64,000 nt of DNA from Candidatus Pacearchaeota archaeon (GCA_050302495.1 JBNLBP010000001.1:191269-255268); one strand, 5' to 3'. Shown: positions 9,500 through 42,326, numbered from the stretch's first letter. Notes: generated by a model from the sequence alone, not told the origin. Translations and numbers: made by a program.

Positions 9500-11353
9500 A
9501 TGCTATTAAGAGGTGTAAAGAAGGGGCAAGTTACTATTTTTATTATCATTGCAATAGTTATTGTTGCTGCCGTTGGAATTTTCTTTTTATTGAGGAGTCA
9601 GACTAGTATTTCTAGGATTCCTTCTGAGTTTGCACCAACTTACGAAAGCTTTACTTTTTGTCTAGATAGCAAGGTTGAATCAGGGGTTAAGGCTTTGGAA
9701 TCTCAAGGAGGCTACATTGATTTGCCTGAGTTTGTTTCTGGTTCAGAGTATATGCCTTTCTCTTCTCAACTTAATTTATTAGGTAATCCTATTCCTTATT
9801 GGTATTATGTGTCTGGAAATAACATTGAGAAGGAACAGGTTCCAAGTAGGCAAGATATGGAAAATGATTTGAGCGGTTTTATTGAATCCAAAGTTGTTGA
9901 TTGTATCCCTGAAGACTTGGATGAAGGTTTTGAGATTACTGTGGGAGATCCTTTGGTCCGGACTAGCATTAAACCAGGAGAAGTCCAGGTCAATGTTAGA
10001 ATGGATTTTACAATTAGTAAAGATGATGAGTCAGTGAGTATTAATAATCATCAATTGATCTTTGATTCAGAGTTAGGAAGGTTGTATTCTAATGCAATTA
10101 TTGCTTACGAGGCTGAACAAGATGAGTTGTTTTTAGAGAATTATGGTGTTGATGTTTTGAGATTATATGCTCCTGTTGATGGAGTTGATTTTACTTGTAG
10201 CCCTAAGGTTTGGAGTGCTGATGAAATATTTGAGGATCTATCTGTCGCAATACAAGAAAACACACTTTCTATTAAATCTCAGGGTAACTCTGAAGATTAT
10301 TTTGTGGTAGATTCTTTGAATTCAAGAATTTCTGATGGGTTTTATGTGAAATTCCTTAATTCAGAAAGTTGGTCAAGTAGTTTTGAAGTAAATCCTTCTG
10401 ATGGTCCTATTTTAATTGCAAATGCAATTGGAAATCAGCAAGGTTTGGGGGTTTTAGGATTCTGTTATGTTCCATATCATTTTGTGTACAATGTTAATTA
10501 CCCTGTTTTGGTTCAGGTTTATAGTGAAAATACAGATGAGTTCTTCCAGTTTCCTGTTGCTGTAGTCTTAAGGGGTAATAAAGCTAGGGAGGCTGTTGCT
10601 TCTTCTGGTGCTTCAACTTATGAGGGCCCCAATATATGTGAAAATAAAAATACTGGTCTGAGAGTAAGGACTATTGATTCTAACTCGAATCTTGTTAATT
10701 CAGAGATTTATTTTGAGTGCTTTGGGGATAGTTGTAAAATAGGAGATAGTGAAAATGGTATCTTAGAAGATGCTTTCCCTCAGTGCGTTAATGGATATAT
10801 AATTGCAAAGGCTGAAGGTTTTGAGGATACTAGTGTCCAGATAACTAACATTGGTCCTGGGAACTTTGATATTATCATGAATAAACTTTATGATACAGAA
10901 GTTCTTTTGAATTTGGATGCGATTGCTTATAATGGAGAAGCTACAATTACTTTTGAAAGAGAGGGTTTCTCTCAAACATTGGTTTATCCAACTCAAAAAG
11001 AGATTAGTTTGAGTGAAGGGTCTTACAATATCAGTGTTTATATTTATAGAAATGCTTCTTTGAGTTTAGGATCAAGTGTTCAACAGTATTGTATTGACGT
11101 TCCTAGGGCGATAGGAGGTTCTTTGGGTTTGACTAAAGAAGAATGTTTTGATGTAGAAGTTCCTGAACAAATTATTTCTAATGCTCTTTCCGGAGGAGGA
11201 GAAGTTAATTATTATGTTTCTGAAAATCAATTAAGTAGTGCAAGTCAGATTGTTGTGGGTGCAACTAGCCTTCCAGAGCCAAATTCACTTAATCAACTTC
11301 AGCAAAACTATGTTTTATTTGATAGTAAAAGTTTGGAGGTTTTACTTAGATGA
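9500..11353 (+). CDS. membrane-anchored extracellular protein, hypothetical
   Basis: N-terminal TM/signal anchor (TIFIIIAIVIVAAVGIFFLL) followed by about 580 aa of S/N/G-rich non-hydrophobic sequence. Its stop overlaps the giant-protein ATG (ATGA, 11350-11353), suggesting translational coupling. Confidence 0.6.
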   Translation: MLLRGVKKGQVTIFIIIAIVIVAAVGIFFLLRSQTSISRIPSEFAPTYESFTFCLDSKVESGVKALESQGGYIDLPEFVSGSEYMPFSSQLNLLGNPIPYWYYVSGNNIEKEQVPSRQDMENDLSGFIESKVVDCIPEDLDEGFEITVGDPLVRTSIKPGEVQVNVRMDFTISKDDESVSINNHQLIFDSELGRLYSNAIIAYEAEQDELFLENYGVDVLRLYAPVDGVDFTCSPKVWSADEIFEDLSVAIQENTLSIKSQGNSEDYFVVDSLNSRISDGFYVKFLNSESWSSSFEVNPSDGPILIANAIGNQQGLGVLGFCYVPYHFVYNVNYPVLVQVYSENTDEFFQFPVAVVLRGNKAREAVASSGASTYEGPNICENKNTGLRVRTIDSNSNLVNSEIYFECFGDSCKIGDSENGILEDAFPQCVNGYIIAKAEGFEDTSVQITNIGPGNFDIIMNKLYDTEVLLNLDAIAYNGEATITFEREGFSQTLVYPTQKEISLSEGSYNISVYIYRNASLSLGSSVQQYCIDVPRAIGGSLGLTKEECFDVEVPEQIISNALSGGGEVNYYVSENQLSSASQIVVGATSLPEPNSLNQLQQNYVLFDSKSLEVLLR

Positions 11354-14300
11354 TTAAGAATAAGTTTTTTGTTGTAGGTATTTTTGTTTTGATATTGGGG
11401 ACTCTTCTTTTGGGAGGGATAGAGGCTTATAGCGTTTCTACTCCTAGTTATTCTTTGTATAACAATGCTGGAGGTGTTGGGGGAAGTTTTGCAAGTTTTA
11501 CTCAGCAAGGTTTTGATAGCGAATTATGTTCTGCTGGAACAGATTTTCTTTTACAAATACAACCTTTTGAATGTGAGCCTGCAGTTGTGAGGAGTGATCT
11601 TCTTGAAGAACAAGATGTTACTGTTTTGTGTAAAATTGGAGCTACACAAATAAATCCTTTGATTGATGTTCAAGCTATAAACACTCTAAACATTGTTGGG
11701 GAGTATCCTAGAGAAATAAAGAGTATTGGTTATTTCCCTTCCCAGTCTGCTTTGGGTTATTATGATTTTGATGAAACTCTTACTGATCCTGCTTTGAATA
11801 ATTTGGGTTATGTTGCTATAACCCTTAGACAAAACCCTAATGAAAGTTCTATGCCTGATTTTGTTTCTGGAAATCTAACAGCCAAGATTAATTATGATGT
11901 TAAGAATGCATTTGGCGTTGGTCAGGCTGAATTTTATCTTCCTGTTTTGAATGATGAGGATTATTTTAACAATATAAATCAGTATAGTTTTTGGGAAGGT
12001 AGAGGGTACCTTAGGGCTGATAGTGTTGGCACGGATGATGCCAGTATATCTCTTTATTCTGATGTTTCTTCTGGATCTGCTAGTTTTGGAAACTCTGGAA
12101 AGCAAAGAGTTACTCAAGTTAGATTGAATGGAGGTGAAACTTCTGGTTCGATTTATATTCCTGGTTTTAGCCCTTGTTTGGCTTCAATGAAGTTGAAACT
12201 TAATGGTGTTGAAGATCCAGATACTAGAGCAGAGTTGTTGATTAATACAGATCATGTTGAAATTAATGATAATGGTGATTTCTTAGAAAGTAAGTGTACT
12301 GTAACAGATTTGGACAAGAATGGTTTGAATCAGAAAGTTAGTATTAGGTGTAAGGAAGATGATGGCAGTTCTAGTTTTAATTTATTTTTGTCCCCTAGAG
12401 TGAGAATCTCTATTGATGGAATTGCTAAAGATTATTCTGTTGGAGATTATCTTTATTCTAACAATGGAAGAGGTGTTTATTTGGGTTATATTAGTTCTAA
12501 GGGTGGATCAACAGATGTTGAAAATTTATATGCCGTTTTGGTTTCTTTACCTGAAGAGAAAACTAAGTTAACAGAGGATGAAATTTCAAGTATTGCAATA
12601 CAAATGAATCTGTTGTTTTCGGATACTGAAGGTTCAGGAGCAGCGGTTTTTGATATTGGGGCCGAAATTCTAAAGAAATTCTCAGGGGCTTCAGTTACTC
12701 TTGCCAAATGGACTGTTAGCGGACAAAATATACAAAAAGTTGATTTTAAGACAAATGTTGTTTCCCCTCAATATGATTTTGAAGGAGAAAAAGTTTCCTT
12801 AAGTGGTTTTTCTGAAGGAGAAGATAATGGGGTTGTTGAGGTTGTTCCGGAATCTTATGATTTACAGAAAGCTAATTTAGATGTTGGAGGGATTTTGCCT
12901 AAACAAGTTTACAAAGTTTACAAGGATGGAGAAGATACAGGTTATTATTTTACTGCTAGTGAGAGTGGATCTCCTAAATTTATTTTGAGAAAGAACACTG
13001 TGACGGAGATTTTAGGTGTGGGAGAATTTTATGGAAAGGATTGTTCTTTACATCAGTCTTGTTCTGAGTATATTTTATCAAAGGTAGATAACAGCGTTTC
13101 AGGAGACTTTTTTGAAGGAGTTGTTTCAGGAAGTGTTTTAGTTAATGAGAATAAACTTGTTTTAAACAAACTTGTATTTAATTCAAATTCAAACGAGTTG
13201 TATAAACAATATTATGATAAAGCTATAACTGATTTTGAAACTGTTTTGAATAGTTTTGGAGGGTTAAGTATTGATGGGGCAGATGATACTTATGGTGAGA
13301 GAGCTTTGTATCAGGCTATTAATCTTTCTAAAAGGATCAATCAAAATAAGGCTTTGAAACAACTTTGTCAAGAATTTATTGAGAGCTATCCTGATTCAAT
13401 TAAACCTTTAGATATGTGTGAAGATGACTATTCTTTATCTAACTCGGGTATTTCTAATAGAGATGTTTTAGTTAACGGAGAGATAAAAACAATTTCCTTT
13501 GAAGGTATAAAAGAGCCTACTTACCAAGAATACGGTGCAGAAGTTTTGATAAGAAGTTCGGACGGTAAGATCCAGACTTATCAATTAAGAAAGGATAAAG
13601 TTGTATATTTGAATTTAAAAGATAATGCTTCTGGTTCAGAATATATTAAACTAGATTCGGTGGATGAAGATTCTGCAAGGGTTACGGTTTATGTTTCTGG
13701 AGAAAATCTTGCAAATCAATTATTTTCTTTGAATAGCTATACTTTTGATATTGATGAAACAAGAGGTATTGGAGGAGGGTATAGTTTAACCCTTACTGAT
13801 ACTAACATAGAAAAGGTTGCAAGGGTTTCAGTGGTTCCAAGTTTTAATTATCAGAATTCTGAATCTGAATTTGGATTTAATATTGGCATAGAGAAACGTT
13901 CAATACAACTTTCTGACGAACAGATTGAGAATAGGGTTGATAGTTTAAGTAATGCAATTTCTGATCTTGAAAAGGCTTCAAATGCTCTCAATACGTTTAA
14001 TGAAGCTAGTGCTAAGGTTTGTTTAGCAACAGGAGCTGTTTTAACTGCTAAGAATTTCTTGGCTAACTCGGATGGTAAATCTATAGCGAGACAGAAGGTC
14101 ATGCGTAGTTCTGGAGGGTGGAATGATTTTTGTGCTAGTGAAGTAAGTAAAGGGAATTATATTTCTCTAGATGATTGTTTCCTTGAGAATTCTGATGAGA
14201 TAGATTCTCAAGTTGATGAAGTTTTCAATACAATACAAACTCAGAATGAAAGAATAAAACAACTTGAAGCTGATTCTTTGCAAACAGGAACTTTAACAAA

Positions 14301-17300
14301 TAAGGTTGTTGATCAACAGGAATTTATGAAGGATTATTCTCAGATTGGATCTGATTCTTTAGTGGGCTTGGGTAATACTTTCGTCGATCCTACTGGTAAA
14401 AATGAACCTCTTGAGATTGATGAAATTAAGAATTTGTTAAGTTACCAGGGTTGGGAAAGTGGTATCTATAGCATAGATGATCTTAAAGATATAGAGCTTT
14501 ATGCAACTTTAGTTAAGAGTACAAATGATGCTGAGAGCAAGAAGTCTTACAGCCAAACACTTTACTCTTTGCTTTATGACGTTCAAAATAACGCAGGGAA
14601 TTTTGTAGAAAGAACTTCTTTCTTTGACAAGTATTCTCTAGAGGGTCACCAGGGAGGATTTATTTCTTCAGATGATAAGATAAAGAGAATTCAGGTTTCT
14701 GATTTAAAGACTTGGGCAGATGTTGAAAGTTCATATCCTGGAGGGATGAGTGTTGTTTTACTTCCAAATTCGATTATCTTCCCTGGAAACCCTGCAGATT
14801 ATCTTATTGCGGATAATGAATTGGTTTATCCGGTTGTTGATATAGCTACTAATAGGGAATATCTTTTGGTTTTGAATGATGATTATATTGTTACTAGAAC
14901 ATTCCAGTTAAATCCTTTGAATGGTCAGTTGGTTATGGTTAATGATAAAGTAAACCCTCTGAGTTTAGCTTTTGATAAATATGATGAAGGTTCATATGAG
15001 AATAGTTATAAGAATCCAGAAGTAAGGTATTATGAGGAAGACCCTTACAAAGGTTATCCTGCGATTGTTCCTTTAGATACAAATGATGGTTGGTATGCTG
15101 CAACTAAACCTAAGCTTCCTGTTGGAAGTCAGATTACTGCTTATGATGCTTCAGGTAGATTGAATAGTTTCTGGTTATGTAACGTTGGATCTAATGGTTT
15201 GGAAGAATTTTCTAGTTCTGGTTTAGGAGATGATATTTGCCAACAAATTAATGTGGGGGTTCCTGGAACTGTTTATAATCAATTTGCTGGATTGAGTGAA
15301 AGTAAAACTACAAGGCTTGTAACTGATGCTGTTGATTCGATTGAGAAGGCTCAGAGAGCTTATAAGAATGGAGTTAATTCTGTTAGAATCAACGGTCAGA
15401 ATTACAAAGTTGGAGAACCTGCGGTAGAAACTCCCGCAGTTCAGTGTCAAGATTTCATGTCTCCTAAAGAATGTAATTTATTGTTTAATGTTTGTGATCC
15501 TGTTGTTTGTCCTAGCTCAAGATGTGATTTTGGAGGGGCTTACCCTGTTAAGGATGTTGTTCAGACAGGAATAGTTGGAAGTATTGCTCTCTGTGCACCA
15601 AATTATAAAGAGGGGATAAAGGTTCCGGTTTGTACAACAGGTGTTCAAGCTGGTTTGGATTCATGGATAAGTGTCCAGGAATCATATAGGGATTGTTTGC
15701 AGGAAAATTTGGAGAGTGGAGAAACTATTGGTGTTTGTGACGAGATACATAGTGTTTATGCTTGTGAATTCTTTTGGAGACAATCAATACCTTTGGCTAA
15801 AGTAGCTGTTCCAAAATTAATTGGATTAATTTCAGGAGAGAACACCCGTGGTGGAGGAGAATATCTGGGATTACAGAGTGCATGGGATAATGCAAAAGAT
15901 TCTTTAGACTACTTTAAACAATATTATGCTTCTGAATCTTATAATGCTTTCAAAGTTAGAAGTGTTGATGAAGCTGGAACTGCGGTTTGTAAAAGTTATG
16001 TATCTACGGTTTACCCTTCTAGTGCTGAATTATTAGATAGTTTAACTACTCCACGTTCGCCTCCGCAATTTACAGGAAGCTTTGATGAGATTCCATTTAC
16101 TACCGCAACAAATCCTCCCACCTCACAGTATAAGGTTTATTACCACATTTATTCTGGACAAGATTCTGGAGCTTATTACAGAGTTTATCTTAAGGGTGGA
16201 AGTGGGAGTTTCTATCAAGATAGCGCGCTTAATAGAGTAGTTGATTCCGGTTACGTTTCAGTAGGAGATTATGCTTCAGATACAGTTGACTTTACTGCAC
16301 CTTCAGGATATACCCAATTATGTATTGTTGTAAATAATCAGGAAGAGTGTGGTTTCGGAAAAGTGTCAACTTCTTTTGCAGTTAATTATGTTAATGATTT
16401 GTATTTGCAGGAACAAACTACTTCGGGGGTTACAACAGAAGAAGAATGTGTTTCTGGAAGTGCTAGTTTGTATAGCTTATTGAATCCTAACCTTCAAGAT
16501 GTGGCTGAAGGTTTAATCAACCCTGAGCTGTACCAAAAAGGTATTACAAGAGTTTGTGCTACAAACAGCCCTGGTATTGGAACGGATGCTAAGGATGGGA
16601 CTGAAAATGCAAGATGGAGAAAAGTGGGTTACTGTACAGATACAAACGTTGGTTGTTGGCTAGATACTGATTCCGTTAAAGATGCTATTAAATCCTTAGA
16701 TGTTGAGAATTCTGTTTTAAATGACACCGCTCAGAGTTATCTTGATGATTTGGTAAATTCTGGAGATTATGTTAACAATCAGAATTATAGTCAGACTTTA
16801 AGAGACGTTAAGAAAGAATCTGATTCTTCTAAGAAGATAGAAATAATAAATAATATTTTGGATAAGGTATTCTTTAGTAATCAAAAAGCTGAACTTTATT
16901 TCTTGAGAGGTTTGGCTTATGGAGATCTTTCTGGTTTGGAATTTGGTAAGATTGAACAAATAAAAACAAATAGTGTGGACCTTGGAACAATTGTTGATGA
17001 CCAAGGAAACGTTTGCATCTTGCCTCAAGTTCCTAGTGATATTTCTTCAATTGATGATGCTCGGCAAAGAGTATTGAAAGCTGCAGAAAAATTAGATGGG
17101 GGTTTGGCTTTCTCTGGAGATTATGCGTGCTATAGTGCTGCTGTTTATGTATACCAATATGCAGGGGTTTCTGCTGTTCCTTCTTATGCAGATAAATCTG
17201 GGGCCACCTATACCTTAAAGGATTCAAATTCAAAAGTTACAATTGGCGTAGATAAAACTTCTCAAGGAAGTGTTATTTTCCAAGTTGGAACAGGTTATAA

Positions 17301-19425
17301 TAAGATCGGAGAAGATAACTATGATACTAAACTAGCATCTCTTCAACCTGGAGACCAGTTGGATATTGTTTGGGCCTCTAAATTGCCTCACTCGGTTATA
17401 TTTATTTCTTGGATTAATCCTGCCACAAATGAAGAAACTACTTCTGTTACTGGATATGCTAGAATCTTTGATTGGAATGGTGCAGATTTGAAGATCGATG
17501 AGAAAGATGAAAATGGGCTTGTTTGTGGAGAAGATAATAAGTATGTTAGAACTCTTAATAAGGGTAAAGTTAATGAGGAACAATATTGTAATACTTACAG
17601 ATACACGAATTTGTATTTAACTTCTGATGTTCATCCTGTTTATCTATATAGATCTCCTCAATTAAGTGGCACAACTATTTCTACGGGTACTGGTGGTACG
17701 GGAGTTAGTAGTGTTTTAGCCAAGTTTTCTTCAGGATATTCTTCTCCTGATATTGAATTCCAAGATGGAACTAGTTATAGAAATGTTCACTATAAGTTCC
17801 AAGAGGGAGGTTGGTATTGGTTTAATCCCAAAGATAATTTTTGGTATTCTGTTAGCGATAGTATTGAAGGTAAGGCAGTTTCATTGGAGGTGAATAGACA
17901 AATAATTACTTCTCTTCAAGAACGTAATGGCAACTACATAGAGGGTCTTGGAGTTATTATAAATAATGTTCTTAGTTTCAGTGGGGGTGTTTTGTTTGGT
18001 AGAATTAATTTCATTAGTTCTAGTCCGGATTTGAAAACAGAGAATGTTAATTTGAATAGTGAAGGTATCTTTAAGGTAGATCTTTCTTTTAATGAACAGC
18101 CTTATTACTTTAGATTTAAAGAAGGTGTATGGGAATTTAATCCTACTAGGGGTATTGATCCACGTTATTGGTTTGATGTTTCGGACGTTTCATTTAATAA
18201 AGCTGCTAGTCAGGTTTTGGTTTCAGGTGAAGCTAAGGTTGTAGGTTCAATTCCTTCAGATCCAATACAATCTGTTACCGTGAGCCTTGTTGATAAGACT
18301 TATTTTGAGGGGGCTGCCCTGCTTTATGATTTGTCGGATAATTCAATAATTGAGTCTACACAGGATGTTGATTCTCAAAAATTGGATTCTTGGGAGAGTG
18401 AGAATTTAGGAAGCACCGATTTGGGCAGGTTTACTTCAAAACAAATTTCAATACTTTATGATGCTCCTAGTTGCGTTTATTGTGAGAGTTATCCTGATGA
18501 TTGTGATAGTAATTTATGTGCAGTTATTGGTAAAAAATTAGGCGCTTCTTGTCAGTATTATGCAAAGGGTGCAGATATAAGTGATACTCCTATATACAAT
18601 TGTCGTGCAGGAGAAGGGTACACAGATAGAGAATTAAGATCAATATATGAAGCAACTCAGTGTAATGATTGTGGGTCTGGTTTGGGTAACTTCTGTGGTG
18701 AGACTGAATGCTTAGATATTGGGGAAAGAATTGGTAAGACTTGTGAATATGGGTTCTTGAGTTGTAAAGAAGCACAACCTGCTCAAGACGACACTTCTGA
18801 TATTCCGAATTGGAATACTCTTTCTGCTGAACAAAGGGACGTTTATTCTAGTGCAACACAGTGTAGTGATTGTATAACAAGTATAAGTTCTACAAGTGGC
18901 ACTTCTAATTATTGCGATGCTAATCTTTGCGCATCAATTGGTTACAAATTAGGCAAGAATTGTGTTCAGGAACCAGGCTTGACTAAAACTTGTATTGAGG
19001 GAATTGGTTTAGATAATCTTGATCAACAGTTAGTTGATGCTCTTTATAGAGGTCTGGATGACAATAATAGGGCTGAGATAATGTCCTTGATTGAACAAGG
19101 AGCTGATATCAATGTTAAAGATGATGATGGATGGACTCCTTTGATTTATGCATCTCGTCTTGGACATCTTGACCTTGTAAAATATCTTGTTGAAAATGGT
19201 GCAGATGTTAGTGTTAAAGATGGTATAGAAGGTTGGACCGCTCTTATACATGCCTCTATTAAGGGAGATGTTGACATTGTAAAATATCTTGTTGAAAATG
19301 GTGCAGAGGTTAATACCCAAAGTGATTCTGGAGAAACAGCGTTAGATCGAGCTGTTCAACTTAATAATGTTGATGTTGTTAGTTATTTGCAATCTAAAGG
19401 TGCTAAATCTGGGAGTGAACTTTAG
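11350..19425 (+). CDS. giant (2691 aa) secreted/surface protein with C-terminal Cys-rich modules and ankyrin repeats
   Basis: Uninterrupted 8.1-kb ORF. N-terminal hydrophobic signal/anchor (FVVGIFVLILGTLLLGG). Several Cys-rich blocks, e.g. around 15450-15800 and 18468-19010. The last about 125 aa are 3-4 ankyrin repeats (DGWTPLIYASRLGHLDLVKYLVENGADV; GWTALIHASIKGDVDIVKYLVENGAEV; GETALDRAVQLNNVDVVSYL). Confidence 0.8.
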   Translation: MIKNKFFVVGIFVLILGTLLLGGIEAYSVSTPSYSLYNNAGGVGGSFASFTQQGFDSELCSAGTDFLLQIQPFECEPAVVRSDLLEEQDVTVLCKIGATQINPLIDVQAINTLNIVGEYPREIKSIGYFPSQSALGYYDFDETLTDPALNNLGYVAITLRQNPNESSMPDFVSGNLTAKINYDVKNAFGVGQAEFYLPVLNDEDYFNNINQYSFWEGRGYLRADSVGTDDASISLYSDVSSGSASFGNSGKQRVTQVRLNGGETSGSIYIPGFSPCLASMKLKLNGVEDPDTRAELLINTDHVEINDNGDFLESKCTVTDLDKNGLNQKVSIRCKEDDGSSSFNLFLSPRVRISIDGIAKDYSVGDYLYSNNGRGVYLGYISSKGGSTDVENLYAVLVSLPEEKTKLTEDEISSIAIQMNLLFSDTEGSGAAVFDIGAEILKKFSGASVTLAKWTVSGQNIQKVDFKTNVVSPQYDFEGEKVSLSGFSEGEDNGVVEVVPESYDLQKANLDVGGILPKQVYKVYKDGEDTGYYFTASESGSPKFILRKNTVTEILGVGEFYGKDCSLHQSCSEYILSKVDNSVSGDFFEGVVSGSVLVNENKLVLNKLVFNSNSNELYKQYYDKAITDFETVLNSFGGLSIDGADDTYGERALYQAINLSKRINQNKALKQLCQEFIESYPDSIKPLDMCEDDYSLSNSGISNRDVLVNGEIKTISFEGIKEPTYQEYGAEVLIRSSDGKIQTYQLRKDKVVYLNLKDNASGSEYIKLDSVDEDSARVTVYVSGENLANQLFSLNSYTFDIDETRGIGGGYSLTLTDTNIEKVARVSVVPSFNYQNSESEFGFNIGIEKRSIQLSDEQIENRVDSLSNAISDLEKASNALNTFNEASAKVCLATGAVLTAKNFLANSDGKSIARQKVMRSSGGWNDFCASEVSKGNYISLDDCFLENSDEIDSQVDEVFNTIQTQNERIKQLEADSLQTGTLTNKVVDQQEFMKDYSQIGSDSLVGLGNTFVDPTGKNEPLEIDEIKNLLSYQGWESGIYSIDDLKDIELYATLVKSTNDAESKKSYSQTLYSLLYDVQNNAGNFVERTSFFDKYSLEGHQGGFISSDDKIKRIQVSDLKTWADVESSYPGGMSVVLLPNSIIFPGNPADYLIADNELVYPVVDIATNREYLLVLNDDYIVTRTFQLNPLNGQLVMVNDKVNPLSLAFDKYDEGSYENSYKNPEVRYYEEDPYKGYPAIVPLDTNDGWYAATKPKLPVGSQITAYDASGRLNSFWLCNVGSNGLEEFSSSGLGDDICQQINVGVPGTVYNQFAGLSESKTTRLVTDAVDSIEKAQRAYKNGVNSVRINGQNYKVGEPAVETPAVQCQDFMSPKECNLLFNVCDPVVCPSSRCDFGGAYPVKDVVQTGIVGSIALCAPNYKEGIKVPVCTTGVQAGLDSWISVQESYRDCLQENLESGETIGVCDEIHSVYACEFFWRQSIPLAKVAVPKLIGLISGENTRGGGEYLGLQSAWDNAKDSLDYFKQYYASESYNAFKVRSVDEAGTAVCKSYVSTVYPSSAELLDSLTTPRSPPQFTGSFDEIPFTTATNPPTSQYKVYYHIYSGQDSGAYYRVYLKGGSGSFYQDSALNRVVDSGYVSVGDYASDTVDFTAPSGYTQLCIVVNNQEECGFGKVSTSFAVNYVNDLYLQEQTTSGVTTEEECVSGSASLYSLLNPNLQDVAEGLINPELYQKGITRVCATNSPGIGTDAKDGTENARWRKVGYCTDTNVGCWLDTDSVKDAIKSLDVENSVLNDTAQSYLDDLVNSGDYVNNQNYSQTLRDVKKESDSSKKIEIINNILDKVFFSNQKAELYFLRGLAYGDLSGLEFGKIEQIKTNSVDLGTIVDDQGNVCILPQVPSDISSIDDARQRVLKAAEKLDGGLAFSGDYACYSAAVYVYQYAGVSAVPSYADKSGATYTLKDSNSKVTIGVDKTSQGSVIFQVGTGYNKIGEDNYDTKLASLQPGDQLDIVWASKLPHSVIFISWINPATNEETTSVTGYARIFDWNGADLKIDEKDENGLVCGEDNKYVRTLNKGKVNEEQYCNTYRYTNLYLTSDVHPVYLYRSPQLSGTTISTGTGGTGVSSVLAKFSSGYSSPDIEFQDGTSYRNVHYKFQEGGWYWFNPKDNFWYSVSDSIEGKAVSLEVNRQIITSLQERNGNYIEGLGVIINNVLSFSGGVLFGRINFISSSPDLKTENVNLNSEGIFKVDLSFNEQPYYFRFKEGVWEFNPTRGIDPRYWFDVSDVSFNKAASQVLVSGEAKVVGSIPSDPIQSVTVSLVDKTYFEGAALLYDLSDNSIIESTQDVDSQKLDSWESENLGSTDLGRFTSKQISILYDAPSCVYCESYPDDCDSNLCAVIGKKLGASCQYYAKGADISDTPIYNCRAGEGYTDRELRSIYEATQCNDCGSGLGNFCGETECLDIGERIGKTCEYGFLSCKEAQPAQDDTSDIPNWNTLSAEQRDVYSSATQCSDCITSISSTSGTSNYCDANLCASIGYKLGKNCVQEPGLTKTCIEGIGLDNLDQQLVDALYRGLDDNNRAEIMSLIEQGADINVKDDDGWTPLIYASRLGHLDLVKYLVENGADVSVKDGIEGWTALIHASIKGDVDIVKYLVENGAEVNTQSDSGETALDRAVQLNNVDVVSYLQSKGAKSGSEL
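18468..19010 (+). repeat. three tandem Cys-rich modules within the giant protein (coding repeat)
   Basis: Modules SCVYCESYPDDCDSNLCAVIGKKLGASC / ATQCNDCGSGLGNFCGETECLDIGERIGKTC / ATQCSDCIT...NYCDANLCASIGYKLGKNC share the pattern ATQC-DC...C..LC..IG..LGK.C. Confidence 0.5.
19030..19422 (+). other. ankyrin-repeat region (C-terminus of giant protein)
   Basis: Repeated 33-aa units with the consensus G-TPL--A---GH-D-VK-L---GA-VN. Confidence 0.7.
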
Positions 19426-21585: not shown

Positions 21586-21711
21586 GCTCCGGTAACTCAG
21601 CCTGGATAGAGTGCCAGATAAATTGAATAAAATGAGATTTAGGCAAACCTTCTATCCAGTTAAGTCTGGAAAGTAAGCTGGAAGTCGCAGGTTCGAATCC
21701 TGTCCGGGGCA
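21586..21711 (+). tRNA. class-II tRNA, probably tRNA-Leu (anticodon TAA), with an about 41-nt intron at a non-canonical position
   Basis: Acceptor GCTCCGG/CCGGGGC + A, D-arm ACTC-AGCCTGGATA-GAGT (Leu-like AGCCTGG loop), T-arm GCAGG-TTCGAAT-CCTGT. Total 126 nt; a class-II tRNA of about 85 nt would leave an intron of about 41 nt. The only canonical loop reading is U33-UAA-G37 (TTAAG at 21660-21664). This forces the intron (about 21619-21659) to lie after position 32 rather than 37. A 9-bp helix CTGGATAGA (21603-21611) / TCTATCCAG (21651-21659) spans it. Exact junctions unresolved. Confidence 0.6.
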
Positions 21712-25094: not shown

Positions 25095-25178
25095 GCGGAT
25101 ATGCCGGAGTGGTCAAACGGGCGACGTTTAGGGCGTTGTAGCTTAGTGCTTACTTAGGTTCGAATCCTAATATCCGCA
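25095..25178 (+). tRNA. tRNA-Leu (anticodon TAG), class II
   Basis: GCGGATA-TG-CCG-GAGTGGTCAAA-CGG-G-CGACG-TTTAGGG-CGTTG-TAGCTTAGTGCTTAC (variable arm)-TTAGG-TTCGAAT-CCTAA-TATCCGC-A. 84 nt, no intron. Confidence 0.85.
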
Positions 25179-27015: not shown

Positions 27016-27045
27016 CTTTTTATACACTACTTGTTTATTTTTAGT

Positions 27046-28698
27046 ATGTACATAGCAAAACAGAAAATTAATGGAAAAGATTATTTTTATCTTAGGAAAG
27101 CTGTTCGTGAAAATGGAAAAGTTGTAAGTAAACACATGGCTTATTTGGGGAAAACTCGTGATGAGGCTGAAAAAAAGATGACAGAAATTCTTAAAAATAG
27201 AAATGATGCTAATCAAGATATGGAAACGATTCAAGAAGAAAATCAAGATGTTTTGAAGAGAAAAGATGTTTCTGTTGAAGAACTTGCTAAGTTTTGTAAG
27301 GAGAAGGGTTTTGTTTATAGATCAAGCGATATTTATGGAGGTTTTGCTGGTTTTTGGGACTATGGTCCTTTAGGTGTTGAGTTGTTTAATAATATAAAGA
27401 AGGAATGGTGGAATTTCTTTGTTCATGATAAAGACAACATGGTGGGTATGGAGGGGTCTATAATTTCCCACCCTAGAACTTGGAAGGCTTCGGGTCATTT
27501 AGACAATTTTGCTGATGTTTTTGTTAAATGTAAGAAATGCGGAAAGACTGGAAAGTTAGATGAAAATGAAGTTGGTAAAGTTAATTGTCCTGATTGCGGA
27601 GGAGAGTATGAATCTCAAGGTAAATTTAATTTAATGTTTGGAACTGATGTGGGTGTTGGAGAAAGCACACAGAAAGCTTATCTTAGAGGAGAAACTGCTC
27701 AAGGAATGTTTTTGGATTTTAAATTGATCTCTCAAACTACTAGGCAACAATTGCCTTTTGGTGTTGCACAGATTGGAAGATGTTTTAGGAATGAGATTGC
27801 TCCGAGAGACTTTTTGTTTAGAAGTAGGGAATTTCATATAGGAGAATTTGAATTTTTTATTAACCCTGAAGATGAGAAGTGTGATTTACTTGATGAAGAA
27901 CATTTGAATGTTAAATTTAGTTTCTTATCTGAAGAGAATCAAAAGAATGATTCTAACTCTCTTGAGAAGGCAACAATAAAAGAATTAATTGAGAAAAAAA
28001 AGTTGGGTGAATGGCACGCTTATTGGCTTGCTGAACAAATAATTTGGTTTAGAAGATTAAATTTAGACGAAATTAAAATTAGAGAGCATACAAAAGATGA
28101 ATTGAGTCATTATAGCTCTGCAACTTTTGATATTGACTACGAATATCCTTTTGGTTCAAAAGAAGTTGCAGGAAATGCTAACCGTGGCCAGTATGATTTA
28201 ACACAACATCAAAAAGAAAGTAAGGAAAAAATGGAAATTTTCGACGAGAGAACTGGCAAAAAGGTTATTCCGAGAGTTATAGAGCCTACCTTTGGTATTG
28301 AAAGAATATTTTTGGCTGTTTTGACCAAATCTTATTGCGTTGATGATAAAGATAATACTGTTTTGAAACTTCCGTTTAGGCTTTCGCCTATAAAAGCTGC
28401 AGTTTTTCCTTTGATTAAAAGAGAAGACTTTGATGTTTTATCGAAAGATATTGTTAGAAATTTGAAAAAAGAATTTAATGTTGTTTATGACAAGTCGGGA
28501 AGTATTGGAAGAAGATATGCAAGAAATGATGAAGTGGGTACACCTTTTTGTATAACTATCGACGAGGATTCACTAAAAAATAAAGATGTAACTTTAAGAT
28601 TTAGAGATACAAAAGAACAAAAAAGAATTTTGATCAAGGATTTAAGAAATATTTTAAGAGATTTGCTTGATGGAGAGAAAAATTTCTCAGATTTGTAA
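27046..28698 (+). CDS. glyS: glycyl-tRNA synthetase (archaeal/eukaryal dimeric type)
   Basis: FVYRSSDIYGGFAGFWDYGPLGVELFNNIKKEWW and class-II motifs throughout. ATG at 27046; the ORF-track start at 27031 is TTG. Confidence 0.9.
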   Translation: MYIAKQKINGKDYFYLRKAVRENGKVVSKHMAYLGKTRDEAEKKMTEILKNRNDANQDMETIQEENQDVLKRKDVSVEELAKFCKEKGFVYRSSDIYGGFAGFWDYGPLGVELFNNIKKEWWNFFVHDKDNMVGMEGSIISHPRTWKASGHLDNFADVFVKCKKCGKTGKLDENEVGKVNCPDCGGEYESQGKFNLMFGTDVGVGESTQKAYLRGETAQGMFLDFKLISQTTRQQLPFGVAQIGRCFRNEIAPRDFLFRSREFHIGEFEFFINPEDEKCDLLDEEHLNVKFSFLSEENQKNDSNSLEKATIKELIEKKKLGEWHAYWLAEQIIWFRRLNLDEIKIREHTKDELSHYSSATFDIDYEYPFGSKEVAGNANRGQYDLTQHQKESKEKMEIFDERTGKKVIPRVIEPTFGIERIFLAVLTKSYCVDDKDNTVLKLPFRLSPIKAAVFPLIKREDFDVLSKDIVRNLKKEFNVVYDKSGSIGRRYARNDEVGTPFCITIDEDSLKNKDVTLRFRDTKEQKRILIKDLRNILRDLLDGEKNFSDL

Positions 28699-28822
28699 TT
28701 ATTTTATCTCCGACGGTAAAAACTAATTTTTTTATTATAAATTTTTTTACAAAAAATAATTTTACAAAAAGTTTTTAAAGAATTAATACTTGATTCTAGT
28801 AATTAAAAAAGAGGTGGTCGTC

Positions 28823-28984
28823 ATGGCTATGAAAAAGAAAGCAGTGAAGAAAAAGATGCCTAAGAAAAAAATGGCTAAGAAGAAGATGGTGAAAAAGAAA
28901 GCCGTTAAGAAAAAAGCTGTTAAGAAAAAGGCTGTAAAAAAGAAAGCTGCAAAGAAAAAGACTGTTAAAAAGAAAAAGAGATAA
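28823..28984 (+). CDS. small lysine-rich basic protein with KKKAVKKK repeats (histone H1 tail-like)
   Basis: MAMKKKAVKKKMPKKKMAKKKMVKKKAVKKKAVKKKAVKKKAAKKKTVKKKKR. ATG at 28823 follows an SD-like AAGAGGTGG by 7 nt. The ORF-track start at 28790 is further upstream. Confidence 0.55.
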   Translation: MAMKKKAVKKKMPKKKMAKKKMVKKKAVKKKAVKKKAVKKKAAKKKTVKKKKR

Positions 28985-29052
28985 TTTGTTTTATTTTTTA
29001 TTTTATTAGTTTAATATGCAAATGAGCGATTTGGTTGCAATGATTTTGGTTT

Positions 29053-29667
29053 TTAGTCACCCTGTTTCAGGGTTGATTTTATTGTTTTTATTATAGTATT
29101 GTTTTTTGATTCTTTTTTTATTAATTTGTAATCGCTAGGTATTATCTTTGATTTGTTCTTGTTTATTTCTGTTAATTTTATATTATTTTTTGTTGTAGCT
29201 GTTATAAGAATTAATATGAAGGAATTAATTATTTTTTTGTTTTTTACTAAGTGTTCTAGTGATATTGAATTTATTTTTTTAAGTGATATGTCAACATTGT
29301 GTTTTTCTTTCATTATCCTTTTTGCTGCTGTTTCAATTTCCTCTCCTTGTAATAATCTTCCTCCAGGAAGACTTAGTAGATTTTTGTATGGTCTTTTTTC
29401 TCTTTTTTGGAGGAATGCTTCGTTTTTGTTCCCAATTAATATAAGTATTACAGGTAAGGTTGAATTCTTTTCAGATAGATAAGGTATTATATTTTCAGAC
29501 CCTTCGCTTAACTGGTAAAATTCTTTTTGTTTAGTGATTATTCCTTTTTTTAAGAGTTTTTTTAGGTGATAGTCTAGCTTGTTTGATCTTACTTTTAGAT
29601 ATTTTTCGATTTCGCTGAATTTTAATTTATTCTCTGTAAGAAAGAGTTTTAGTATTTCTTTTTCCAT
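29053..29667 (-). CDS. winged-HTH / Nudix-domain fusion protein (putative Nudix-related regulator)
   Basis: The N-terminal about 55 aa look like a wHTH (KFSEIEKYLKVRSNKLDYHLKKLLKKGII). A degenerate Nudix box follows (GGRLLQGEEIETAAKRIMKEKHNV; Gx5E ok, REx2EE degraded to RIx2EK). Confidence 0.55.
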   Translation of the reverse strand: MEKEILKLFLTENKLKFSEIEKYLKVRSNKLDYHLKKLLKKGIITKQKEFYQLSEGSENIIPYLSEKNSTLPVILILIGNKNEAFLQKREKRPYKNLLSLPGGRLLQGEEIETAAKRIMKEKHNVDISLKKINSISLEHLVKNKKIINSFILILITATTKNNIKLTEINKNKSKIIPSDYKLIKKESKNNTIIKTIKSTLKQGD

Positions 29668-29726
29668 TATCCTTAAGTCAATTTTTTTGAGGAATTATTT
29701 AAATATTATTGTGATAAAATTTTTCT

Positions 29727-30224
29727 ATGTCCAATAAAAATCTTACTCATTTTGTTGTTGTTACAGGAATAATTGTTAATCAAGAAGGTAAATTTTTGGT
29801 TGTTAAACGTGCTGATTGGGAAAAAGCTTTCCCTGGGAGGTGGACTGTTCCAGGAGGTAAGTTAGAAGTTTTAGATTATGTTCTTAGAAATAAAGATACT
29901 CCTCACCATTGGTATAATGTTTTGGAAGATTTGTTAAAAAAGGAAGTTAAGGAAGAGGTTGGACTTGAGATTCAAAACATAGATTATGTTACTAGCATGG
30001 TTTATATTCGTCCAGACAAGGTTCCTTGTTTGATTGTTAGTTTATTTGCTGAACTCCTTAAAGAAACAAATGTTAATCTGTGTAATGCTTTAATTGAATA
30101 TGCTTGGGTGAGCTTGGAAGAGGCTAAAAATTACGATTTAATTGAAGGAATTTATGATGAATTGGTCATTCTTGATAGAAAAATTAATGGTGAGAAAACT
30201 GTTTGGAAAGGTAACAATATATAA
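29727..30224 (+). CDS. Nudix hydrolase
   Basis: Nudix box GGKLEV...EDLLKKEVKEEVGLEI (E-x2-EE-x-G-u). Divergent from the wHTH-Nudix gene. Confidence 0.7.
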   Translation: MSNKNLTHFVVVTGIIVNQEGKFLVVKRADWEKAFPGRWTVPGGKLEVLDYVLRNKDTPHHWYNVLEDLLKKEVKEEVGLEIQNIDYVTSMVYIRPDKVPCLIVSLFAELLKETNVNLCNALIEYAWVSLEEAKNYDLIEGIYDELVILDRKINGEKTVWKGNNI

Positions 30225-30254
30225 TTTTTTAAACTTGTTTTGTTTTTTGGTTTT

Positions 30255-30602
30255 ATGGAAGATTGCATTTTTTGTAAGATAGCTTCTGGTGAAGTTACCT
30301 CAGATAAAATCTATGAAAATGATAGCTTTTTTTCTATGCCAGATAAAAATCAACAGATAGAAGGGCATAGTTTGGTTATATCAAAAAGACACTTTAAGAC
30401 TACTTTAGATATGCCTTCGACTGTTGGTACGGAGTTGTTGGATTGTGTTAAACAAACTGCTTTGAAAGTTTTAGACTCTGAGAAGGCCGATGGATTTAAT
30501 CTTGTTCAGAATAACTTTGAATCTGCAGGACAGGTGGTCAACCATGTTCATTTTCATATACTCCCTAGAAAGAAAGGTGGAAAAGTTCCAAGAGTTTACT
30601 GA
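30255..30602 (+). CDS. HIT family (histidine triad) nucleotide hydrolase/transferase
   Basis: CIFCKI N-terminus and HVHFHILPR histidine triad. Confidence 0.85.
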   Translation: MEDCIFCKIASGEVTSDKIYENDSFFSMPDKNQQIEGHSLVISKRHFKTTLDMPSTVGTELLDCVKQTALKVLDSEKADGFNLVQNNFESAGQVVNHVHFHILPRKKGGKVPRVY

Positions 30603-30667
30603 TTTTTGTGTTTAATTATAGAATAGTTCTAAAATATTATATTATTTTTTGTTTTGTATTTGTTGTG

Positions 30668-31447
30668 ATGTTTGATATCAATAAGTTGTCTCATGATGAA
30701 AGATTTGCTCTACTTTATGGAATAATGTTGGGAGATGGATGTTTGTCAAAATATGTTACAAAACAAAAAAGAACGATATTTGGCATATCAATCGTTTGTA
30801 ATTACTACGATGATATTCCTTTTATTAAAGAATTTGTAGCTCCAATAATAAATTCTTTGCGATCTGGGATGAAACCTTTGAGAATTATTAGAAGGCCTGA
30901 AAAAGGAACTGTTGAATTGTTCTTCTCTGATAAAAGTCTTTTTTGCAAAATTAATTCTTTAGGATTTCCTATTGGTAAGAAAGGAACAAAGATAATTATT
31001 CCTGGAGAATTCCATAGGAGAGATCTTGTCAAATATGTTATTCAAGGAATTTTTGCTACGGATGGTAGTTTGGTTTTAACAAAAAATCCTAACAAATTTT
31101 ATCCAAGATTGGAGGTCCATATGATTGCTCATGATTTGATAAGACAAATTCATGAATTCTTGATCGAGAATGGTTTTAATGGTAACATGTATGAATGCAA
31201 AAGGAATAAGGATGAGAGGGGATTTATTAAAATCTTCAAAAAGTTTCGTGTGCAGTTTAATGGGAAAAAGAATTTGATATTGTTTTATAAAAATATCGGA
31301 TTTGTTAATCCTAAACAACTGAAAAAATTCCAGGCATTTATGAGATATGATCGGAAATATCTTTCTTCTAAAAAGGAACTGTTTAATCGGGTAATTTTGA
31401 AAGATATGGCTGCACTGAGATTCGAACTCAGGACCTCAAGCTCATGA
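30668..31447 (+). CDS. LAGLIDADG homing endonuclease-like protein (double motif)
   Basis: LLYGIMLGDGCL and VIQGIFATDGSL motifs. First ATG at 30668; the ORF-track start at 30608 is GTG. The 3' end overlaps tRNA-Met on the opposite strand by 41 nt. Confidence 0.65.
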   Translation: MFDINKLSHDERFALLYGIMLGDGCLSKYVTKQKRTIFGISIVCNYYDDIPFIKEFVAPIINSLRSGMKPLRIIRRPEKGTVELFFSDKSLFCKINSLGFPIGKKGTKIIIPGEFHRRDLVKYVIQGIFATDGSLVLTKNPNKFYPRLEVHMIAHDLIRQIHEFLIENGFNGNMYECKRNKDERGFIKIFKKFRVQFNGKKNLILFYKNIGFVNPKQLKKFQAFMRYDRKYLSSKKELFNRVILKDMAALRFELRTSSS

Positions 31448-31479
31448 GACTTGCGCTCTACCAACTGAGCTATGCAGCC
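31407..31479 (-). tRNA. tRNA-Met (anticodon CAT; elongator, or Ile2-type)
   Basis: Reverse complement GGCTGCA-TA-GCTC-AGTTGGTA-GAGC-G-CAAGT-CTCATGA-GCTTG-AGGTC-CTGAG-TTCGAAT-CTCAG-TGCAGCC-A. G1-C72 argues against an initiator. Confidence 0.85.
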
Positions 31480-31771: not shown

Positions 31772-32674
31772 TCAAATTTTTTGTATATCTGACATGTTTT
31801 TTAGTGCCTCAATTAGGTTTATTGTCTTTTTTAGAGGTTCTGCAGTGCTTAGTATTGCGTACTTTAGGTTTAAGTCCTGTGCTTTTTTGTTTGCTGCAAT
31901 TATCTCTTTTTCTCCTGCTTTCTTTTTGTAGGCCACGAGTAATTGTTCTTCTTGGTTTTTTCTTACTTTAAATGTTAATTCAGATTTCCCTATTGAAACT
32001 AGGTCTATAATTTCTATGTTATTTTGCGAAAGGTATTCTTTTACCATATTAAAGAATTTATCATCTTGTTTGCTTGCGGTTTTCTTTTTAGAGGTTTTTT
32101 TTGGTTTATCCTTTTTTTCTTTGGGTTCTTCTTTCTCAAATATGTCTAATTCCTCTTTTTTGCTTTCTTGAGAGGGATTTTCTTTTATTTTTGGTTCTTG
32201 AGTTTCTTTAGGTTTTTGGATTTCTTCTCTTTTTTCTTCGGGATTCTTATCTGGGATCCTTACTTCTTCTTCCGATGCTATAAAATACTTCCAATACAAT
32301 TCATTATTCTTCTCTTGAGGTATTGCAAAATCTCTTATTTCTCGCAACGCAACACGTATTGCTGGTTCTTGTTCAGTATCCTTTAGAATTTTATTTTCTT
32401 GGAGTTTTATGAAAGCTTCTTTTTCTTTGCTTTTTAGGTATTTTATTGCAAAACTTTCTAATTGAGACTCTTGTCCTGGAATGTAGTATATGGGAGAACT
32501 TCCTACTTTCATATTAGTTATTTTAATTTGCTTTTCTGAGAGTAGTTCTGAGAGGAATGCGGAAGTGAATAGAATGCTTGTTTGTATTTCGCTGGCTATG
32601 GGCGATGGAAAACCTGGGCCTTTTGCGTTCAGAATTGAAATTATCCTCTCTTTTATTTTGTTTGTATCAAGCAT
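31772..32674 (-). CDS. hypothetical winged-helix protein with long charged K/E linker
   Basis: N-terminal wH-like segment (ISILNAKGPGF...KVGSSPIYYIPGQ), central KEKKDKPKK low-complexity region, and a conserved-looking C-terminal domain. Confidence 0.5.
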   Translation of the reverse strand: MLDTNKIKERIISILNAKGPGFPSPIASEIQTSILFTSAFLSELLSEKQIKITNMKVGSSPIYYIPGQESQLESFAIKYLKSKEKEAFIKLQENKILKDTEQEPAIRVALREIRDFAIPQEKNNELYWKYFIASEEEVRIPDKNPEEKREEIQKPKETQEPKIKENPSQESKKEELDIFEKEEPKEKKDKPKKTSKKKTASKQDDKFFNMVKEYLSQNNIEIIDLVSIGKSELTFKVRKNQEEQLLVAYKKKAGEKEIIAANKKAQDLNLKYAILSTAEPLKKTINLIEALKNMSDIQKI

Positions 32675-41475: not shown

Positions 41476-41591
41476 TTGACCTCTTTTAAATATTCTTTTT
41501 AATGTATATATGAAAGAATATAGGTTTAAAAACTTTATTTATTTTTCTTTTGGACCGAAAAGTATTTATTTCGGTTAAAATTGGATTTAAA

Positions 41592-42326
41592 ATGCTTAAA
41601 GATTTTCTAAGAGAAGTCGTTGTTATCACCGCCGGAAAACCCGCTGAACCTATTGTAGATTTACTTCATAGTTCTAAGCATGTTAATGAGTTTGTTATAG
41701 CAAAGAAACTTGACTTGACCATCAATCAAACTAGAAACATTTTGTATAAGATTTCTGATTTTGGATTTGTTAGTTCTATTAGGAAGAAAGATAAGAAGAA
41801 AGGATGGTATACTTATTTTTGGAAAATTGAAGTTTTGAAAGCTTTGGAGTTTTTGAAATCTTATACTCAAAAGAGACTGGACCAATTTGAGAACCAGGTT
41901 AATAGTAGGGAGACAAAAACATTCTACATTTGTGAGAGGTGTAATTTAGAGTTTAACGAGGATAATGCAATGAATATAGAATTTACCTGCCCAGAATGTG
42001 GGGATATTCTCTCTCTTAAAGATAACTCTAAGTTGGTTAAGGATTTCAGGAGAAATATGGACAAACTTAATGAAAAGATGGATTTAATTGATGCTGAAAT
42101 TGAAATTGAAAATCAGAAAATCGGAAAAGAGAGAGAAAGGCAGAGGAAAAAAGTTGAGAAGGAGTTGGCTAAGAAGAAAGCTGTTAAGAAGGCAATTAGA
42201 GATGCGGCAAAAAAAACAGTTAAGAAAAAGACTGTAAAAAAGAAATCTACTAAGAAGAAAACTCCTAAAAAAACCGTTAAGAAAAAGGCAGTTAAGAAAA
42301 AGACTATAAAGAAGAAGTCTAAGTAA
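41592..42326 (+). CDS. tfe: transcription factor E (TFE alpha) with lysine-rich C-terminal tail
   Basis: wH domain with KKDKKKGWYTYFWKI (TFE signature), zinc ribbon CERCN...CPECG, then about 55 aa of KKAVKKA/KKTVKKK repeats. ATG at 41592; the ORF-track start at 41550 is TTG. Confidence 0.75.
   Translation: MLKDFLREVVVITAGKPAEPIVDLLHSSKHVNEFVIAKKLDLTINQTRNILYKISDFGFVSSIRKKDKKKGWYTYFWKIEVLKALEFLKSYTQKRLDQFENQVNSRETKTFYICERCNLEFNEDNAMNIEFTCPECGDILSLKDNSKLVKDFRRNMDKLNEKMDLIDAEIEIENQKIGKERERQRKKVEKELAKKKAVKKAIRDAAKKTVKKKTVKKKSTKKKTPKKTVKKKAVKKKTIKKKSK

Follow-up and report, generated by a model that had tools for sequence, protein, structure and literature searches.

The C-terminal domain of the linker histones H1 and H5 probably neutralizes the charge of DNA and, in its free state, is probably disordered; lysine accounts for approximately 40% of this domain in H1, and kinetoplastid H1 consists of the tail only. 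Among bacterial proteins, Hc2 of Chlamydia (hctB) and BpH1 of Bordetella are DNA-binding proteins of variable size with lysine-rich pentamers and acid-free C-terminal domains, and BpH1 is dispensable (PMC2848022). Hc2 also binds RNA with high affinity and represses translation, and Hc1 of Chlamydia (hctA) joins an N-terminal dimerization domain to a lysine-rich DNA-binding tail (PMC2848022). The demonstrated role of Pseudomonas AlgP is to space and organize polyphosphate granules; it is not a classical chromatin protein (PMC9239181). A search of the open-access literature found no description of comparable lysine-rich mini-proteins in DPANN archaea.

We analyzed a window of 64,000 nucleotides from the genome of a Candidatus Pacearchaeota archaeon in which an earlier note had pointed out a stand-alone lysine-rich ORF of 53 codons at positions 28823 to 28984, a reading that translation bears out. 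The product, MAMKKKAVKKKMPKKKMAKKKMVKKKAVKKKAVKKKAVKKKAAKKKTVKKKKR, has 53 amino acids and is encoded from an ATG at 28823 to a TAA at 28982-28984. It contains 31 lysines (58%) and a single arginine, 15% alanine, 11% valine, and no aspartate or glutamate, so that lysine and arginine together make up 60% of the residues and the net charge is +32. After the opening MAM, the protein consists of ten KKKxx units and nothing else, ending in KKKKR, and the autocorrelation of its basic residues reaches 0.88 at a lag of 5. When the window was examined in all six frames, strongly periodic lysine-rich stretches were found only in this mini-ORF and in the tail of the transcription factor TFE. An Rfam scan of the window returned tRNAs only and placed no RNA family at the mini-ORF locus. 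An upstream TTG at 28790, which would extend the product to 64 amino acids, was rejected as the start because it precedes the predicted transcription start and because all orthologs begin at an ATG spaced from the Shine-Dalgarno (SD) sequence.

At the DNA level, TRF returned periods of 15, 30, 45, and 60 nt at the mini-ORF and none of 24 nt. The repeat unit is therefore 5 amino acids, or 15 nt, and not the 24 nt first described; the description as KKKAVKKK with a 24-nt period had counted one KKK twice. The DNA units share a mean identity of 65%, and exact internal repeats reach at most 13 nt. The units depart from their consensus at 33 places, 22 of which are third codon positions. The repeats are thus imperfect, which makes the present DNA less prone to slippage than had been suggested. 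Over time, repeat units were nonetheless gained and lost, as ortholog lengths of 16 to 107 amino acids, with the frame always kept, indicate.

Hc2, BpH1, and Hc1 are the closest analogs of the mini-protein and not its homologs. As in Hc2 and BpH1, lysine-rich pentamers follow one another directly with alanine, valine, threonine, and proline as spacers, the positive charge is evenly spaced, and acidic residues are missing (from the C-terminal domain in the case of Hc2 and BpH1). The likeness extends to size, which varies widely between relatives as repeat units are added or dropped in frame, and, for BpH1, to dispensability, as the mini-gene appears to be dispensable in some relatives. Unlike the archaeal mini-protein, which is a bare repeat of 53 amino acids, Hc2 and BpH1 are bacterial proteins of 149 to 237 amino acids with conserved flanks and 36-amino-acid higher-order elements, and they carry two basic residues per pentamer where the mini-protein carries three. 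The Pfam models Hc1 (PF07432) and HC2 (PF07382) matched neither the window ORF at E values up to 1 nor its orthologs at E values up to 10. The resemblance to Hc1 lies in the longer members of the family described below, which join a conserved N-terminal helical part to an acid-free lysine-rich tail; in contrast to Hc1, the window protein has no N-terminal helix, and the long-form element spans only about 20 to 30 residues.

Resemblances to other polycations are looser. The composition of the mini-protein is similar in kind to that of the C-terminal domain of H1 and H5, a lysine- and alanine-rich, acid-poor, low-complexity polycation, although the two have no alignable homology and the mini-protein lacks the winged-helix globular domain (no match to PF00538 at E values up to 1). 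It also departs from the H1 domain in its single proline, its lack of S/TPKK motifs, its strict five-residue period, and its denser lysine (58%). AlgP is likewise a low-complexity lysine-rich repeat protein labeled H1-like, with KPAA-type repeats and a much greater length. Protamines are dominated by arginine, unlike the mini-protein with its 31 lysines to one arginine. No ribosomal protein was matched in Pfam, NCBIfam, or PDB sequences, and length varies from 16 to 107 amino acids across the family. Of the resemblances drawn in the earlier note, that to bacterial H1-like proteins holds as an analogy, best with Hc2, BpH1, and Hc1; no homology to H1, Hc1, or Hc2 was detected.

Direct searches with the 53-residue sequence returned no relatives. 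Against a set of 5.8 billion proteins, 215 candidates shared words with the query and none reached an E value of 1e−3 or lower; Pfam (E values up to 1) and NCBIfam gave no match, and PDB sequences gave only a chance match to AbiQ (E = 5). The exact product has no called gene on record. Because the low-complexity bias of the query makes such null results uninformative, synteny was used instead. Loci encoding glycyl-tRNA synthetase (GlyRS) were gathered from species-representative genomes (53 loci) and from metagenomes (80 loci); the relatives found through GlyRS and TFE are all metagenome-assembled genomes labeled Woesearchaeota, Pacearchaeota, or Nanoarchaeota. Slot occupancy was counted over the 119 loci with at least 400 nt of sequence after GlyRS. 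A same-strand lysine-rich mini-ORF with an SD sequence is present in 50 of them, 47 of these within 400 nt of GlyRS; in the window, it starts 124 nt past the GlyRS stop codon. The earlier note had held that absence from close relatives would mark the ORF as spurious, and besides the 50 loci overall, all six with at least 75% GlyRS identity to the window carry the gene, in every case as the tail-only short form found in the window. The slot is empty in some fairly close relatives (L042, L010, L016, L017, L005, and L006), where the gene may have been relocated elsewhere in the genome. Metagenomes were also scanned for near-identical strains in which the number of repeats might be polymorphic, but GlyRS identity exceeded 82% in none of the relatives found.

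The signals that surround the ORF are conserved along with it (Table 1). In a gap-free upstream alignment of 20 orthologs, the pattern aaAAgTTT(T/A)TAAA is conserved, and the order of elements on the 5′ side is a purine-rich BRE, TTT(T/A)TAAA, TAATTAAA, GAGGTG, a spacer of 5 to 8 nt, and ATG. The TATA-like element was found in 40 of 41 distinct orthologs, as was the TAATTAAA motif, and among the 41 orthologs in which both motifs were found, 30 have a distance of 29 nt from TATA to AATTAA. The pattern AATTAAA..GAGG..ATG occurs once in the window, at the mini-ORF. Judging from the TATA spacing, transcription likely starts inside TAATTAAA. Few ORFs of the window have an SD sequence as strong as this one, which had already been noted as good. 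Of the 73 window ORFs of at least 100 amino acids, only 4 show a 6-nt anti-SD match, even with any start within the first 60 codons allowed, and such a match occurs at fewer than 1% of random positions. Downstream, a run of five or more T residues lies within 35 nt of the stop codon in 42 of 43 distinct orthologs, and the T-rich tract of the window is likely an archaeal oligo-T terminator.

Table 1. Positions of the mini-gene, its flanking signals, and related features; positions are those of the window unless a locus is named
Feature	Position	Strand	Basis or remark
Archaeal BRE/TATA-like element (acaaaaag + TTTTTAAA)	28764..28779	+	Ortholog alignment
TAATTAAA motif, ~26 nt past TATA center	28800..28807	+	Conserved in orthologs
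Shine-Dalgarno GAGGTG, 6 nt before ATG	28811..28816	+	Conserved in orthologs
Poly-lysine mini-protein CDS (short form), stop included	28823..28984	+	Slot orthologs, AAG-enriched Lys codons, limited A-runs
Ten KKKxx pentapeptide units, 15-nt period	28832..28981	+	TRF, unit table, autocorrelation
T-rich tract TTTGTTTTATTTTTTATTTTATT	28985..29007	+	T5+ runs after ortholog stops
Lys-rich KKKxx tail of TFE, 51 aa	42171..42323	+	Fused module of same type
Third-variant ORFs	L011 2628-2810; L083 4296-4466; L123 1669-1836		Same promoter/UTR slot after GlyRS

The coding sequence itself bears marks of translation. Orthologs begin mostly with MA and otherwise mainly with MP or MV, and they end in KKKR(R); short forms contain one acidic residue in 660. 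In 21 orthologs, AAG makes up 47% of the lysine codons, compared to 22% in the GlyRS genes next to them (odds ratio, 3.1; P = 7e−25). The longest run of A residues is 6 to 8 nt in each of the 21, and at 16 of these loci, fewer than 5% of simulations with GlyRS codon frequencies gave a run as short as that observed. Ribosomes slide on poly(A) (Koutmou et al., 2015; PMC4363877). The AAG bias and the limited A-runs are what translation of the mRNA and selection against poly(A) tracks would be expected to produce. An arginine lies among the last three residues in 40 of 41 orthologs, though arginine is rare elsewhere in the short forms (one of 53 residues in the window, at 28979-28981); this arginine could serve to protect the C terminus or have to do with the context of a stop codon that follows A-rich codons.

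A spurious ORF in an A-rich, low-complexity spacer would be in keeping with the 32% G+C content of the genome (28 to 36% across the window), with the missing called gene, and with the lack of family or homology matches for the 53-amino-acid sequence. It would not account for the conserved position, strand, promoter, SD sequence, start, C-terminal end, and terminator, for a frame kept through many indels, for the AAG-enriched lysine codons with limited A-runs, for the bias of unit differences toward third codon positions, or for the opposite strand, which has no ORF of 30 or more amino acids at this place. The conservation of the slot, its signals, its ends, and its codon pattern makes a spurious ORF very unlikely, the least probable of all the explanations considered here. 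On this comparative evidence, the mini-ORF is a real and conserved gene with its own predicted promoter in ultra-small DPANN archaea of the Woesearchaeota and Pacearchaeota. The arrangement of signals indicates that it would be transcribed independently, as a monocistronic unit, and probably strongly expressed.

The proteins encoded in the slot share a tail type and differ at the N terminus. Among 50 loci, 24 encode the short form, which is tail only as in the window protein, 23 encode a long form, and 3 encode a rare third form. The long form begins with MAKxKTPKQ(L/I)xIKIxSLKKQ(V/I)xxLE, followed by the lysine-rich tail; this N-terminal helix is missing from the window protein. The third form begins with M(V)AKKRRTTAKQKxAARxNLVKARKKWKxM(S/T)HKxRKAxMP, followed by a K/R tail, and this N terminus had no Pfam match. 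When the loci are ordered by GlyRS identity, short and long forms are intermingled, which indicates that the helix was lost or gained repeatedly and that the tail is the constant part.

Against the 5.8-billion-protein set, a profile of long forms retrieved 113 members, all annotated as hypothetical and without a Pfam domain. An exhaustive search of 1.84 billion representatives yielded 47 long-form clusters, nearly all of them of 33 to 94 amino acids; the exceptions were two long coiled-coil proteins and one protein of 218 amino acids that matched over the first 29 residues only. In an alignment of 110 long-form sequences, T6, K8, and L17 are invariant, and hydrophobic residues at positions 10, 14, 17, 21, and 24 follow the a/d pattern of a heptad repeat. 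PDB searches with the profile returned only GCN4- and tropomyosin-like coiled-coil noise (E > 0.3), which is consistent with a heptad helix and with nothing more. AlphaFold2, run on the long-form alignment, predicted a helix over residues 7 to 36, with block-mean pLDDT values of 91 to 98 over residues 1 to 30, and a helical tail at lower confidence. For the window protein, it predicted one helix over residues 13 to 52, which is weak evidence, the input being one low-complexity sequence. To judge from the open-access literature, the lysine-rich mini-proteins are an undescribed family of DPANN archaea.

In relatives, the gene lies in a syntenic block of the order S8e-TFB ... GlyRS - [mini-ORF] - HIT ... 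EndA, and since the whole block is syntenic, the adjacency of the mini-ORF to GlyRS is largely inherited. The association is not fixed. In L027, the mini-ORF adjoins HIT with GlyRS 1.3 kb away, and on GW2011_AR13-type contigs, it adjoins HIT with GlyRS replaced by another gene. Four more distant lineages have a family gene between M50 peptidase/aIF5A and the L1-L10-P1 operon, with no HIT, and one lineage has a family gene between LSm and S17e. A functional link to GlyRS was rejected as the main explanation, given that the family also occurs elsewhere and that the whole block is syntenic.

Several features of this neighborhood were observed in passing. GlyRS and HIT are the neighbors in most relatives, and in the window (27031-30602) and five relatives, two NUDIX genes are inserted, one of which is fused to an ArsR-type HTH. 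A functional cluster is suggested by what GlyRS, HIT, and NUDIX enzymes have in common, the making or hydrolysis of ApnA or aminoacyl-adenylates. The GlyRS of the window has an N-terminal extension of about 75 amino acids (KINGKDYFYLRKAVRENGKVVSKHMAYLGK..., 27031-27255) with no Pfam match, as well as a Zn-ribbon-like insert at amino acids 164 to 194 (about 27520-27615). The extension is kept in relatives whose match starts at residues 1 to 7 and is missing where the match starts at about residues 75 to 80, and relatives without it mostly have no mini-ORF directly downstream. Further along, a LAGLIDADG-domain ORF (30608-31447, plus strand) overlaps the 3′ part of a tRNA-Met gene (31407-31479, minus strand) by about 40 nt. 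A conserved protein of 300 amino acids (31772-32674, minus strand), with an internal lysine-rich segment and no Pfam match, adjoins the tRNA-splicing endonuclease and is syntenic in most relatives.

Elsewhere, the genes of the window include TFE, TFB, S8e, S3Ae, and a tRNA-splicing endonuclease, which mark it as archaeal. A single ORF of 2,691 amino acids (11350-19425) directly follows one of 617 amino acids. Rfam identified a 126-nt tRNA at 21586-21711, probably intron containing, that ARAGORN missed, and ARAGORN identified a tRNA-Leu(tag) at 25095-25178 that is not listed in the Rfam gathering scan.

The position of the gene upstream of HIT in most relatives raises the question of a regulatory leader ORF, whose translation would sense the supply of Lys-tRNA and tune the downstream HIT gene (a Hint-type aminoacyl-adenylate hydrolase) while the peptide itself would be functionless. 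Hint enzymes hydrolyze lysyl-AMP, and in most relatives only 50 to 130 nt separate the mini-ORF from a HIT gene downstream in the same orientation, an adjacency that persists where GlyRS is absent or distant, as in L027. In the window, however, the ORF and HIT have the two NUDIX genes between them, one of which lies on the opposite strand. Furthermore, 42 of 43 orthologs have a predicted oligo-T terminator after the stop codon, four lineages have a family gene next to the L1 operon with no HIT, and 16 to 107 codons would be long for a leader peptide. The conserved N-terminal peptide of the long form, with T6, K8, and L17 invariant, implies a functional protein. We consider a leader ORF quite improbable.

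A target in RNA or on the ribosome is a more serious alternative, which we regard as possible without thinking it probable. In this explanation, the protein would serve RNA as a chaperone or counter-ion, act at the ribosome as an associated or hibernation-type factor, or assist tRNA binding non-specifically in trans; the last would resemble the lysine-rich domains appended to eukaryotic aminoacyl-tRNA synthetases. Every conserved neighborhood is translation related (GlyRS in 50 of 119 loci, L1-L10-P1, and LSm/S17e), and the tail of TFE weakly matches tails of ValRS and topoisomerase I, which are generic nucleic-acid binders. Hc2 offers a precedent in its strong RNA binding and repression of translation (PMC2848022). 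Such neighborhoods are weak evidence, however, because information-processing genes dominate DPANN genomes. The mini-gene has its own predicted promoter, a spacer of 60 to 180 nt, and a likely terminator, it is never fused to GlyRS in 133 loci, and the family is found away from GlyRS as well, including in L027. A stoichiometric ribosomal protein would not typically range from 16 to 107 amino acids or be lost from close relatives, as this one is, and no ribosomal protein family was matched.

The lysine-rich module is also found on a DNA-binding protein. The TFE ORF of the window (41550-42326, plus strand) matches Pfam TFIIE_alpha and NCBIfam TFE. The 100% identical NCBI protein (P0152, 258 amino acids) uses the TTG at 41550 as its start, and homologs start at MLKDFL (41592), the probable start of TFE. 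Its tail is 55% lysine, with Thr-rich spacers and a lag-5 autocorrelation of 0.61. The TFE homologs listed for the clade are 232 to 323 amino acids long, compared to 162 to 185 positions in the NCBIfam TFE models, and in each of the 20 homologs inspected, a Glu/Lys-rich helical linker leads into a KKKxV-type tail whose length varies. These tails span 30 to 130 amino acids in the clade, and the tail in the window weakly matches the lysine-rich tails in the NCBIfam ValRS and topoisomerase I models. Together, the linker and tail appear to extend this basal transcription factor in an undescribed way that is specific to the lineage.

The tail of TFE and the free mini-protein share the KKKxx period and the composition, and the tail is preceded by a helical, coiled-coil-like segment. 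They differ in that the tail is covalently attached to an initiation factor specific for sequence context and has Thr-rich spacers. The two are alike in kind, and a similarity of such low complexity is uninformative about common descent. The module thus occurs both free and fused, as the earlier note had it, in the window and throughout the clade; that note had also called the two copies near identical, and of this the shared module type survives but not the near identity.

The presence of the same tail on cytoplasmic, DNA-binding TFE bears on a further explanation, in which the mini-protein would act on another polyanion or surface, such as polyphosphate granules, acidic lipids, the S-layer, or a host surface. 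In the last case, the polycationic peptide would serve an episymbiont, as DPANN archaea typically are, in adhesion or penetration. A charge so extreme and so free of acidic residues would bind any polyanion. AlgP, moreover, organizes polyphosphate granules (PMC9239181). Besides the tail on TFE, it speaks against such a target that the mini-protein has no signal peptide, hydrophobic segment, or amphipathic periodicity (the period of 5 spreads the non-lysine residues all around a helix) and that no polyphosphate or secretion genes lie nearby. A role of this kind is unlikely, though conceivable.

By analogy with the proteins compared above, the mini-protein is most likely a non-specific polycation that would coat nucleic acids. 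We tentatively propose, with somewhat less than even confidence, that it binds nucleic acids non-specifically through its charge, with DNA as the favored target, and that it neutralizes and condenses the chromosome. DNA is favored because TFE, an initiation factor that binds DNA, bears the same tail and because the best-characterized proteins of such design (Hc2, BpH1, and Hc1) bind and condense DNA; in E. coli, Hc1 and Hc2 compact the nucleoid. As a polycation, the protein would bind by charge and without sequence specificity; it would be disordered when free and may turn helical once its charge is neutralized on a polyanion. The AT-rich chromosome would be neutralized and condensed in a dose-dependent manner, the mode of action of Hc2, BpH1, and the C-terminal tail of H1. 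If the heptad-patterned helix of the long form pairs, it would create a two-tailed bridging molecule, as in Hc1, and the lysine-rich tail on TFE would raise the affinity of TFE for promoter DNA. Loss from the slot and extreme variation in length are a better fit to a non-specific binder of the dose type than to a fixed structural subunit.

Other observations temper this proposal. The neighbors of the family are translation related (GlyRS/HIT, the L1-L10-P1 operon, aIF5A, LSm, and S17e) and never chromatin genes. Searches of Pfam, NCBIfam, and PDB sequences detected no homology to any chromatin protein. Given the strong binding of RNA by Hc2 itself, a preference for DNA cannot be taken for granted in such a polycation. 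A phmmer scan of the six-frame ORFs of the window with histone, Alba, MC1, and HU queries found none, in a 64-kb stretch too small to speak for absence from the genome. Histones may be absent from the lineage according to the earlier note, but Table 1 of Henneman et al. (2018) contradicts this in listing histones in Woesearchaeota and Pacearchaeota, and Alba genes are also reported (PMC6136690). With both reported, there is no packaging gap for the mini-protein to fill, which counts against the DNA-packaging reading.

A more elaborate form of the DNA proposal is possible but, in our judgment, doubtful. It posits a gene-encoded polycation system in which an abundant, tail-only, linker-histone-like mini-protein, with or without a dimerizing zipper, would neutralize and bridge the AT-rich chromosome of ultra-small cells together with the tail of TFE, either supplementing histones and Alba or replacing polyamines, which the reduced genomes of Woesearchaeota and Pacearchaeota may be unable to make. 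If true, this would be the first class of H1-tail/Hc2-like architectural proteins described in Archaea. The archaeal chromatin proteins known so far are folded domains: histones, Alba, MC1, Cren7/Sul7, HU, and TrmBL2. A role on DNA, if true, would add to them a tail-only charge neutralizer, a type so far bacterial (Hc1, Hc2, and BpH1) and eukaryotic (the H1 tail and protamine-like proteins). Genes of this kind are systematically missed, as the ORF goes uncalled, low-complexity sequences are discarded, and tryptic peptides are too small for standard proteomics. With its tail alone, helix plus tail, and tail on TFE, the family is a natural series for relating nucleic-acid condensation to length and dimerization.
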